Of a DNA stretch of 6,636 nt, positions 1-5,637 are shown one piece after another. A model generated the notes under the pieces. It did no database searches, was not told the origin of the DNA, and saw only the letters and a program-made list of their open reading frames with translations. Position 1 is the stretch's first letter, and every line of letters begins with the position of its first letter. Both the position numbers and the translations under genes were made by a program. The stretch lies in IMG/VR virus record IMGVR_UViG_2711768007_000001; one strand, written 5' to 3'. The stretch comes from a virus. Lineage: Duplodnaviria; Heunggongvirae; Uroviricota; Caudoviricetes.

Positions 1-450
1 TCTCACGCGCCAGTTTCAGGGCAAAACTCAGCTCACCGTCGAACACTTTCCCGCAGAAACAGGCTCTGCAGGCCCGGCGTCCTCTGCCTGTTCAGGAGCA
101 TCATTCACCACAAACTCATACATACCGGACAGCCGGTACACCACGTTTTCAGCATGAGAAATTGCCTCTGTGGGCCAGGTGGTAAGCACTTCCTGCTCAA
201 TCTGTTTAACGGCTTCATTCATGGACGGCATCTGCGTCTTCTTCGGATGGTTATGCCACAGGGACATCGCAACCACAAAAGCGCCGGTTCTGATGGCGTC
301 TTCCACAGTAAACTTCCGGTTGCTGTCTGACTCCGCCTGTTCTGCCTGCCGTTTCATCAGGTCGAGATGCTCAATACGCTGCAGGGCTGACAGTTCAGAA
401 AGCGTGACGGTCACACCGTTATGTTCAAATGATTCGGTTTTCAGGAACAT
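1..450 (-). CDS. T: Tail assembly chaperone G-T fusion made by programmed -1 ribosomal frameshift; T part truncated by window edge
   Basis: Slippery heptamer G GGA AAG on the minus strand (plus-strand CTTTCCC at 46..52) lies near the 3' end of G. After a -1 slip the frame stays open to position 1 (..VFDGELSFALKLARE..), consistent with the start of the lambda T segment. Confidence 0.65.
28..450 (-). CDS. G: Tail assembly chaperone G (lambda gpG-like)
   Basis: 140-aa ORF MFLKTESFEHNGVTVTLSELSALQRIEHLDLMKRQAEQ...PVSAGKCSTVS matching lambda gpG. ATG at 450-448 with a GGAGAG SD in the 15-nt spacer after V. Stop TGA at 28-30. Confidence 0.9.
   Translation of the reverse strand: MFLKTESFEHNGVTVTLSELSALQRIEHLDLMKRQAEQAESDSNRKFTVEDAIRTGAFVVAMSLWHNHPKKTQMPSMNEAVKQIEQEVLTTWPTEAISHAENVVYRLSGMYEFVVNDAPEQAEDAGPAEPVSAGKCSTVS
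46..52 (-). other. Programmed -1 frameshift slippery heptamer G_GGA_AAG for G/G-T
   Basis: Exact XXXYYYZ-type heptamer GGGAAAG read directly from the minus strand, in the G zero frame as GCG-GGA-AAG-TGT, eight codons before the G stop. Confidence 0.7.
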
Positions 451-465
451 CGCTGACTCTCCGGA

Positions 466-1206
466 TTAACTGGCGGTGACGTTGATTTCTGCAACCGCAG
501 CAAACTCACCATTACCAGATACGACCGGAATGTTGACCTTGCCTGCAGCAACACCTTTCACGGTGATGGTCATACCACTGACCGACACGGTGGCTTTTGT
601 TTTATCCGCAGACACCGCACGGAAGCTCTTGTCGGTTGCGCCATCCGGCTGGAATGCCACGGTCAGCGTGGTGCTCTGCCCTTTCACTACGGAAGCACTG
701 GCGGGTGTCACCGTCATGCCGGTCGTCGCCGTCACCGTGCTGCGATCTTCTGCCATCGACGGACGTCCCACATTGGTGACCTTCACCGTGCGGGTAATCA
801 CCTCCTTCGCCGTCACCGCCTTACCGATACTGCTGACCCAGCCACGGAACACATCGACCGTGCCGTTCGGGAAGCGGATTTTATAGGCACGGGTATCACC
901 TTCATTAAACCACGCCAGCAGCGCCTGCTGCCCCTGCTCTCCGGGCATCCACGCCAGCGTGAAGCTGGTATCTCCGGCAGATTTCTGCCCCTGCCCGGTC
1001 GCAGTCCAGTCTGCATCTTCATCATCGAGATAGCTGTCGTCATAGGACTCAGCGGTCAGTTCGCCGGGCGTCAGGTCTTTAACTTTTGCCAGACGCGACC
1101 AGTCAACGTCTGAAAGCGGGTTCGCATAAGGGTCACCGCTCCCCTTATAAACCCACAGGGTGGTCCCGGCACCTTTCACCGGCATTGTAGGATTTGGTAC
1201 AGGCAT
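466..1206 (-). CDS. V: Major tail tube protein V (lambda gpV-like) with C-terminal Ig-like domain
   Basis: ATG at 1206-1204 sits immediately beside the N-run. 246-aa [45 protein letters not shown]...[11 protein letters not shown] matching lambda gpV. Stop TAA at 466-468. The ORF-track extension upstream through the N-run is an artefact. Confidence 0.9.
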
Positions 1207-1517
1207 ANNNNNNNNNNNNNNNNNNNNNNNNNNNNNNNNNNNNNNNNNNNNNNNNNNNNNNNNNNNNNNNNNNNNNNNNNNNNNNNNNNNNNNNNNNNNN
1301 NNNNNNNNNNNNNNNNNNNNNNNNNNNNNNNNNNNNNNNNNNNNNNNNNNNNNNNNNNNNNNNNNNNNNNNNNNNNNNNNNNNNNNNNNNNNNNNNNNNN
1401 NNNNNNNNNNNNNNNNNNNNNNNNNNNNNNNNNNNNNNNNNNNNNNNNNNNNNNNNNNNNNNNNNNNNNNNNNNNNNNNNNNNNNNNNNNNNNNNNNNNN
1501 NNNNNNNNNNNNNNNNN

Positions 1518-1678
1518 TCCAGCTCTTCGCCCGTGTATTCAGCGCCGGTGAGATAAACGGCAATTGCCGGAAAATCTTCCTCATCAAAAACAGCGGGGCG
1601 ACCATCAAAAAGCGTCGCCCCGGTGTCATGCTTCTCCAGTGCATCCAGTACGGCTGCACGGAGTTCAGTATGTTTCAT
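1518..1678 (-). CDS. U: Tail terminator protein U (lambda gpU-like); only the 5' portion is visible, the 3' end lies inside N-run 1208..1517
   Basis: ATG at 1678-1676 overlapping the Z stop. The visible 53 aa MKHTELRAAVLDALEKHDTGATLFDGRPAVFDEEDFPAIAVYLTGAEYTGEEL match the lambda gpU N-terminus. If the protein is 131 aa as in lambda, the stop would map near 1283, but this cannot be seen. The ORF-track end at 1145 is an artefact of translating N as X. Confidence 0.8.
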
Positions 1679-2253
1679 CGCTTTATTACCATTCTCAGTT
1701 GATGCTGCAGCGCATAGCCCAGCTCTTTCGGAAGACGTTCACGCCGTATCCGTTCAATATTCTGTTTAAACGCCGTGGTCAGCGGCACCGCCATCGGGAT
1801 TTTCACCACATCAATGGGGTAACGGTTTTTCCCGGCCACACGCTGCATAACATGCCACCGGCCGTTTTTCAGTTGCTGAATAAACGCGCCGGGAATACGA
1901 CGGTTACCCACCACAAGCACGCTGCCGCCACCTTTCAGGGATGAACGCTGCCCCTTTTTATGACGCCTGCGGCGGGACAGGACAACCCGCGCATTACCCA
2001 GCTTGATTACGGGCAAATCCCCCCGGTTAACTTTGATTCTGGCCTGCGGATTTTTGACCGTGGCCCTTTTCAGCCTGGCCCTTTCCTTTACCAGTTTCCG
2101 GCGTACCTTTGTCTCACGGGCAACCTGTGACGCAGACTGCGATATCGCGGATGAAGCAACGCGGTTAATGGCCATTGCGGCGGCACCGGGCACCGCCGTT
2201 TTGCTGATACGGCTGAGGTTTTCAACGGCCTGCTCAAGACCTTTTATGGCCAT
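1675..2253 (-). CDS. Z: Tail completion protein Z (lambda gpZ-like)
   Basis: 192-aa ORF MAIKGLEQAVENLSRISKTAVPGAAAMAINRVASSAISQ...ALQHQLRMVIKR matching lambda gpZ. ATG at 2253-2251 with a GGGGGA SD upstream. Its stop overlaps the U start codon (ATGA). Confidence 0.92.
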   Translation of the reverse strand: MAIKGLEQAVENLSRISKTAVPGAAAMAINRVASSAISQSASQVARETKVRRKLVKERARLKRATVKNPQARIKVNRGDLPVIKLGNARVVLSRRRRHKKGQRSSLKGGGSVLVVGNRRIPGAFIQQLKNGRWHVMQRVAGKNRYPIDVVKIPMAVPLTTAFKQNIERIRRERLPKELGYALQHQLRMVIKR

Positions 2254-3069: not shown

Positions 3070-4095
3070 TTACGCCAGTTGAACGGACACGAACTCATCA
3101 GGATCAGCCAGCAGCATCAGCGGTGCTGACTGAATCATGGTGAACTCACGCGCCGGATCGCCGGTGGTCACCCAGTTTTTCGGGTAACGGGCAGAAGCGT
3201 TAATGCCTTCGCGCTGTGCGTCCGCATCCTGAATGCAGCCATAGGTGCGCAGACCGCGAGCCTGAGTGTTCCCCAGCACCATCGTGTTGTCCGGCAGGAA
3301 GTTCTTTTTGACGCCGTTTTCCACGTACTGTCCGGAATACACGACGATGGCCACATCGCCATACATTCCCTTATAGGACACCGCTTTGCCCAGGTCTTTT
3401 ACCGCTGTCTCCAGCTCGGAATGAGAGCCGCGACGGGTATCCAGCTTCTCCTTGACGGCTTTGAAGGAACGGAACAGCGCCCAGCCTTTCGGGTCAAACA
3501 CGATGATATTCACCACACCGCTGGCGTTCAGCGCGTAGGCTTCGATATCGTCGGTCGGGTCATACGTGGACTTGTCACGCTTGCTCCACTCCGTGACGCC
3601 GGACTGTGTGATGTTGTTCGCCGCACTGCGGCCCATATCCACCTCAACCGGATCGAAGGCTTCACCGGTCATGGTGTATTTGCCCTTGAGCACGGCAGAA
3701 ACTGCCTGCATCTCTTCGACCTGAGCAATGGCCAGCTCTTCGTCACGCATGTTCTGCATGATGATGCGACGGCGGCGGTAAGCCGGGTCCGCCAGATTCT
3801 GCGGATCTTCATCCGGCAGGCGACGCAGGGTCATCTGCGGATTCACCTCATGCTTGGGTTTGACATATCCCGGCGTAAATTCAGAGGTGGAGCCGCCACG
3901 GGAACGGATAACCTCACCGGAAACAATCGGCGAAACGTACAGCGCCATGTTTACCAGTCCCGGAATTTGTGAGAGATAGACTTTCTCCGTGGTGAAGGGA
4001 TAGCTCTCACGGAAAAAGAGACGCAGAAACAGCGGATCAAACTTAAATTTCTGCTCATTTGCCGCCAGCAGCTGGGCGGTTGTGTACATCGACAT
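3070..4095 (-). CDS. E: Major capsid protein (lambda gpE-like, HK97 fold)
   Basis: 341-aa ORF MSMYTTAQLLAANEQKFKFDPLFLRLFFRESYPFTTEKVYLSQIPGLVNMALYVSPIVSGEV...DEFVSVQLA matching lambda gpE. True start ATG at 4095-4093; the ORF-track N-terminal extension runs into the intergenic region and is rejected. Stop TAA at 3070-3072. Confidence 0.95.
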   Translation of the reverse strand: MSMYTTAQLLAANEQKFKFDPLFLRLFFRESYPFTTEKVYLSQIPGLVNMALYVSPIVSGEVIRSRGGSTSEFTPGYVKPKHEVNPQMTLRRLPDEDPQNLADPAYRRRRIIMQNMRDEELAIAQVEEMQAVSAVLKGKYTMTGEAFDPVEVDMGRSAANNITQSGVTEWSKRDKSTYDPTDDIEAYALNASGVVNIIVFDPKGWALFRSFKAVKEKLDTRRGSHSELETAVKDLGKAVSYKGMYGDVAIVVYSGQYVENGVKKNFLPDNTMVLGNTQARGLRTYGCIQDADAQREGINASARYPKNWVTTGDPAREFTMIQSAPLMLLADPDEFVSVQLA

Positions 4096-4492: not shown

Positions 4493-4888
4493 TTACACTG
4501 GTGTGTTCAGCAAATCGTTAACGGCATCAGATGCCGGGTTACCTGCAGCCAGCGGTGCCGGTGCCCCCTGCATCAGACGATCCAGCGCAGTGTCACTGCG
4601 CGTCTGTGCACTCTGTGGTGCTGCGGCCAGAATACGGCGGGCCGTTTCCACGGTCATACCGGGGGTTTCGGCCAGCACGCGTGCCTGTTCTTCGCGTCCG
4701 TGAGCCTCCTCACAGTTGAGGATCCCCATAATGCGACTGTTTTCTGCCGCAACCGCTGCGGTGATCTGCGCGTTCACGTCCGGCTGCGCCGCGCTGGCGT
4801 TCTCGCCCTCCGTCGCTTGCACCACGCCAGTAACGTCAGCCTGCGAAGCAGTGGCTGAAACAGTTGTTGATTGAGTCTCTTTGGTCAT
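4493..4888 (-). CDS. Nu3: Capsid scaffolding protein Nu3, nested in-frame in the 3' part of C (internal start)
   Basis: Internal ATG at 4888-4886 (MTKETQSTTVSATASQ...), in frame with C and sharing its stop. It is preceded on the minus strand by a strong Shine-Dalgarno sequence (TCAGGAGGGCGA then ATG). 131 aa, Ala/Gln-rich and low-complexity, as expected for a disordered scaffold. An alternative in-frame ATG at 5098 (MDATRRMF...) has no visible SD. Confidence 0.6.
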   Translation of the reverse strand: MTKETQSTTVSATASQADVTGVVQATEGENASAAQPDVNAQITAAVAAENSRIMGILNCEEAHGREEQARVLAETPGMTVETARRILAAAPQSAQTRSDTALDRLMQGAPAPLAAGNPASDAVNDLLNTPV

Positions 4889-5637
4889 TCGCCCTCCTGA
4901 GAGACGGGATTTACGTGCATCCAGTGCATCACGCATGACGGTGATCGCATCGGTACTGTTAACAAGTTCATCAGCCAGTCCGGCATCAATGGCCTCCTGA
5001 CCGCTGTACACTGCAGCCTCGGTATCCAGCACAGCCTGCACGGACAGGCCGGTATATGCCGACACCTTCTGTGCAAACATCCGGCGGGTTGCATCCATCC
5101 GGGACTGCAATGTTTCCCGGACATCATCCGGTAGATGGCTGTAGGGGTTGCCATCCACCTTATGGCTGCCGCTGTAAATCAGCGTGATTTCCACGCCCTG
5201 TTTCTCCAGTGCAGCGCCGTAATTACTGTGAGCCATCATGACGCCGATGGAGCCTGTCCGGGCGGTCTGCGTGACCAGACGCCGGGAGGCGGCACTGGNN
5301 NNNNNNNNNNNNNNNNNNNNNNNNNNNNNNNNNNNNNNNNNNNNNNNNNNNNNNNNNNNNNNNNNNNNNNNNNNNNNNNNNNNNNNNNNNNNNNNNNNNN
5401 NNNNNNNNNNNNNNNNNNNNNNNNNNNNNNNNNNNNNNNNNNNNNNNNNNNNNNNNNNNNNNNNNNNNNNNNNNNNNNNNNNNNNNNNNNNNNNNNNNNN
5501 NNNNNNNNNNNNNNNNNNNNNNNAAGCTGGCCTGCAAGCGCACAAAAGAAAACCCGCGCATAGGCGGGTTCAAGCATCAGCGGCTCATTAAAAGCCATGC
5601 TGGCAATATGCGGGAGATTACGCAGCTCTGCTGTCAC
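4493..5637 (-). CDS. C: Prohead protease / minor capsid protein (lambda gpC-like, S49/ClpP-type serine protease), interrupted by N-run 5299..5523
   Basis: N-terminal 38 aa (VTAELRNLPHIASMAFNEPLMLEPAYARVFFCALAGQL, GTG start at 5637-5635) are visible upstream of the N-run. C-terminal 267 aa (SAASRRLVTQTARTGSIGVMM...NDLLNTPV) are visible downstream, with stop at 4493-4495. Both match lambda gpC as I recall it. The start overlaps the end of B by 20 nt, as in lambda. The two visible parts are in different frames across the N-run. Confidence 0.8.

Follow-up and report, generated by a model that had tools for sequence, protein, structure and literature searches.

Does the run of 310 N that lies between the tail genes U and V in the IMG/VR record IMGVR_UViG_2711768007_000001 measure the DNA that it replaces, or is its length without meaning for the genome? 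The run is longer than the homologous interval of phage lambda, and a first-pass annotation had proposed either that the gap has an arbitrary size or that the genome contains an insertion or a longer U here. We addressed this question for the whole stretch of 6,636 nt (referred to as the window), using comparisons with lambda, with prophages of Escherichia coli and with collections of bacterial genomes and viral contigs.

The entire window consists of a lambda-type head-tail module in reverse complement. The gene order on the minus strand is B (3' part), C/Nu3, D, E, FI, FII, Z, U, V, G, and the window ends just beyond the stop codon of G (Table 1). Near the 3' end of G a heptamer GGGAAAG is found (window positions 46-52, minus strand), a candidate for the -1 programmed frameshift site of lambda G-T, which we presume it to be on the basis of its position; the T reading frame extends past the end of the window. 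Across the 6,101 visible bases no insertions or deletions were observed relative to either lambda or the prophage of E. coli G5, while the divergence from lambda is approximately 2.4%. The earlier statement that the other spacers in the window match those of lambda thus holds for their length, and length differences with lambda are confined to two runs of N, one at the U-V junction (N-run 1) and one in the head gene C (N-run 2). The latter had not been commented on in the first-pass annotation.

Table 1. Features of the 6,636-nt window that bear on the two runs of N.
Feature	Position	Strand	Description
V, major tail tube gene	466..1206	minus	complete, 246 aa and stop
Last base of the U-V spacer (T)	1207	minus	sole visible base of the 7-nt spacer
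N-run 1	1208..1517		310 consecutive N, nothing else
U, tail terminator gene, visible 5' part	1518..1678	minus	53 codons and 2 bases; start at 1678, overlapping the end of Z (1675)
Z, tail completion gene	1675..2253	minus	192 aa
Gene C/Nu3, visible 3' part	4493..5298	minus	resumes in frame +2 past N-run 2
N-run 2	5299..5523		225 N within the head protease/scaffold gene C
Gene C, visible 5' part	5524..5637	minus	38 codons, GTG start at 5637

The sequence on both sides of N-run 1 is that of an ordinary lambda-like tail region. The end of Z and the start of U overlap by 4 nt, as they do in lambda, and the ATG of V with its preceding T is likewise placed as in lambda. The 53 visible residues of U match lambda U with the exception of three substitutions (e.g. 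F23L, A34E, V39I), and show no difference in length. Past the run, the minus strand reads T ATG CCT GTA, with the ATG of V at 1206-1204 and the T at 1207, confirming the first-pass coordinates, which had put the run one base upstream of the V start codon; the run adjoins the base immediately 5' of this codon. Hidden from view are codons 54-131 of U, its stop codon and six of the seven bases of the U-V spacer.

The size of the discrepancy could be determined exactly. In lambda (J02459) the U gene occupies positions 8552-8947 and encodes 131 aa, and V starts at 8955 after a spacer of 7 nt, in agreement with the values given in the first-pass annotation. When the three visible segments of the window were compared by BLAST with lambda and with the prophage of E. 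coli G5, all aligned without gaps and from end to end, and the interval between the flanks of N-run 1 was found to be 241 nt in both references. The run is therefore 69 nt in excess (310 N vs. 241 nt), which is the upper value of the 67-69 nt estimated earlier. Counted from the last full visible codon of U to the ATG of V, the distance is 313 nt in the window vs. an expected 244 nt; for the latter, about 243 nt had been proposed.

Taken at face value, the run would represent a real insertion of approximately 69 nt, located either within the 3' part of U or at its junction with V. Such an insertion could take the form of a U protein of 154 aa with an in-frame extension of 23 residues, or of a small intergenic insert. 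The number 69 is divisible by three and fits an in-frame extension of U, as would be the case for one in three lengths by chance, and small spacer insertions do occur elsewhere in the module of relatives, as exemplified by phage PhiR49_1, whose FII-Z spacer has 43 additional nt. An interval of the corresponding length is nevertheless absent from all the sequences that we surveyed. We scanned 185,579 species-representative genomes and 2.9 million viral contigs with a pattern consisting of the exact flanks of the window and an interval of variable length. No matches were obtained for an interval of 295-325 nt in either collection, and at least 120 viral contigs carry an interval of 226-256 nt between the same flanks. 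Examination of 123 loci, with 56 distinct sequences of the interval, revealed a length of 241 nt in 122 of them and 238 nt in the remaining one, and the U-V spacer measures 7 nt in every locus.

In the single exception (IMGVR_UViG_3300003862_000001, positions 2056-2325 of the extracted locus), one Asp of the sequence RRDDDAG is lost through a 3-nt deletion, resulting in a U of 130 aa; the hidden interval shows no further variation in length among the 123 loci. Among the phage matches listed, the Z-U-V query region varies in length only in PhiR49_1 (PV340568.1), in which the FII-Z spacer (positions 997-1050 of the extracted locus) measures 54 nt vs. 11 nt in lambda; we rejected this phage as a U-V length variant, as its extra DNA sits in the FII-Z spacer.

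In the E. coli genomes, the best 60 matches all span 1,726 nt, compared to 1,795 nt in the query. In a sample spread over the whole ranking of E. coli matches, a single uninterrupted match covers the unmasked interval to within 1 nt in 59 of 60 records, and an interval of approximately 310 nt was not spanned by any genome in this sample. A minority of E. coli prophages have one additional nucleotide over the 541-nt U-V query (e.g. the matches H175, H186, H187, H189 and H193). In the species-representative genomes, the 60-mer flank was found only in Escherichia sp. E1V33 (97.5% identity) and E. coli SCPM-O-B-8794 (96.8%), in each of which the flanks are 241 nt apart. Over the whole window, identity reached at most 98.6% in the 5,426 complete RefSeq genomes of E. 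coli and 98.4% in phages.

N-run 2 provides an internal control for the reliability of run lengths in this record. Its counterpart measures 400 nt in lambda, in the G5 prophage and in all 30 phage relatives listed, so that the 225 N fall short by 175 nt. A second test, based on the reading frame of C, is independent of any relative. The run begins directly after a complete codon of the N-terminal part of C, and beyond it the C-terminal part is read in frame +2; only a hidden length of 1 modulo 3 can connect the two, a requirement that is satisfied by 400 and violated by 225. Read literally, N-run 2 would place the two halves of C out of frame, resulting in a frameshifted and truncated head protease. 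Since N-run 2 is wrong both in length and with respect to the frame of C, the runs of N in this record do not reproduce true distances; one is too long (+69 nt) and the other too short (-175 nt). For the 69-nt insertion this has a further consequence, as taking the lengths at face value also demands a frame-breaking deletion of 175 nt in C. Two indels would be needed, both located in the hidden 8% of the window, with none in the visible 92%. Together with the uniform interval of the surveyed loci, this makes it extremely unlikely in our opinion that the length of N-run 1 is faithful. A real excess would imply that the tail terminator is a variant form or that the U-V junction contains a new element, and we find no support for either.

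The nearest relatives of the window allow a direct view of what N-run 1 probably conceals. Of the 5,543 visible bases that can be compared, 5,542 are identical between the window and two contigs, L139 and L136 (GCA_950287575.1, CATNON010000099.1); the sole mismatch, at window position 3991, is synonymous and lies in gene E. The V flank (segment 1-1207) is 100% identical to these sister contigs at the DNA level, and the visible part of U has the same protein sequence as the N-terminal end of U in L136 (131 aa), a product for which the Pfam domain PF06141 (Phage_tail_U) is recorded. The lineage, with its single mismatch in 5,543 bases, has a very wide distribution; the assembly collection lists the exact V and Z proteins of the window in over 8,000 blocks each.

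Both L136 and L139 contain 241 nt in the position of N-run 1 and 400 nt in that of N-run 2. The same 241 nt interval is present in all 11 near-identical contigs, in two versions that are one base apart, and each of the 11 encodes a U of 131 aa followed by the spacer GGACGCT in front of V. The stretch that is hidden in the window reads in the sister lineage as codons 54-131 of U (DSDTWQAEL...VIIYEM), a TGA stop codon, GGACGCT and the ATG of V. Its spacer is that of lambda, and its part of U differs from lambda U by A79S and T128I with the length unchanged. An interval of 241 nt in 122 of 123 loci and in contigs of the same lineage is difficult to reconcile with a real insertion of 69 nt at this site.

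On the unmasked sister locus we also looked for other elements that might be of relevance. No Rfam match near the gathering score was obtained, repeats did not exceed chance level, and in the U-V region no promoter-like or terminator-like site was detected. Three chromosome-scale sequences that are otherwise near-identical (L132, L137 and L138) show 1-4 gaps relative to the window, and in these FI, Z, C and H are called as split fragments. The split genes may be due to indel errors in the assemblies rather than represent real pseudogenes.

A different possibility is that a large mobile element, for instance an insertion sequence of the IS66 family in the U-V spacer, lies beneath N-run 1 and interrupted a short-read assembly. 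In that case the hidden DNA would measure kilobases in reality, and the element would disrupt the tail operon. Assembly gaps classically arise at IS copies, and precisely such an insertion is present in the best complete-genome matches to the whole window, E. coli 1504D004 (NZ_CP149565.1) and 1604D011 (98.6% identity), whose matches extend over 9,449 nt rather than 6,742 nt. In the prophage of 1504D004 (positions 7030-9744 of the extracted locus L126), and in the same way in 1604D011, a 2,699-bp ISCro1 element (IS66 family) with the genes tnpA, tnpB and a transposase gene resides in the U-V spacer. It is accompanied by an 8-bp target duplication, GGACGATA, that consists of the spacer and the A of the V start codon. 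In 1504D004 this duplication restores the spacer in front of the V ATG, and the element places 2.7 kb between the late operon on its upstream side and V with the tail genes that follow. The insertion lies in the same interval as N-run 1, demonstrating that this spacer can take up DNA, and the V-side edge of the run falls inside the 8-bp target.

The edges of the run do not have the appearance of an IS boundary, however. At neither edge is an IS end visible (no GTAA...TTAC end and no GGACGATA). The V-side flank starts at TATG and does not contain the remainder of the duplicated spacer that is expected up to the boundary of the element, while the U-side edge is located 233 nt upstream of the U stop codon, within ordinary U sequence. 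None of the 11 near-identical contigs carries an IS in the U-V spacer. The IS-bearing clone belongs to a different sub-lineage and is not the closest relative of the window, as its V flank is only 96.5% identical, and with 2,699 bp and an 8-bp duplication its insertion bears no relation in size to an excess of approximately 69 nt. N-run 2 in C would need a separate explanation regardless. Considering the absence of IS ends and of a target duplication at the edges, we regard an IS beneath N-run 1 as highly unlikely. For extra DNA of either kind in the hidden interval, i.e. an IS in the U-V spacer or an in-frame extension of U by 23 codons, our assessment is that it is very unlikely; if present, it would mean that the tail operon of the prophage is interrupted or altered.

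Based on the sequence comparisons above, we consider it very probable that the 310 N are a non-biological placeholder, the length of which is uninformative on the DNA that was replaced. It could be either an assembly or scaffold gap of estimated or arbitrary size, or a mask that was applied later. N-run 1 resembles such gaps and hard masks in that it consists of pure N, has collinear flanks and differs in length from the homologous interval, whereas the sizes of 310 and 225 differ from conventional fixed fillers (e.g. 100 N). One observation that argues against a placeholder is the location of the edge of the run 1 nt from the ATG of V, which is somewhat unlikely for a random boundary. The excess of 69 nt stands as a calculation, but it belongs to the placeholder and not to the genome.

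Of the alternatives put forward in the first-pass annotation, an arbitrary gap size is strongly supported by N-run 2, the sister contigs and the scans, and an insertion or longer U is not supported. An unmasked sequence with an ordinary U of 131 aa and a 7-nt spacer had been named there as the sign of an arbitrary run length, and this is the arrangement seen in the nearest proxies. All the proxies, that is the 11 near-identical contigs, the 122 of 123 loci and lambda, have a 7-nt spacer and a 131-aa U. To the extent that the source DNA equals the sister lineage at this position, as we infer from the visible bases, N-run 1 almost certainly covers the same ordinary stretch of 241 nt that the lineage has here.

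The hidden stretch would accordingly comprise codons 54-131 of U, the TGA stop codon and the spacer GGACGC(T), which would bear the ribosome-binding site of V. In this arrangement a tail terminator U of 131 aa would be followed 7 nt downstream by the tail tube gene V, in a lambda-like fashion. With respect to the origin of the placeholder, one plausible cause would be the collapse, in a short-read assembly, of sequence that is common to co-resident lambdoid prophages, since E. coli genomes hold a median of two and up to 10 copies of the module.

These results imply that the lengths of the N-runs in this record should not be read as real distances. From N-run 1 no insertion, longer U or altered coupling between U and V is to be inferred, and N-run 2 likewise does not indicate a deletion or frameshift in the head gene C. 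The underlying biology would be that of the textbook Z-U-V arrangement of lambda.
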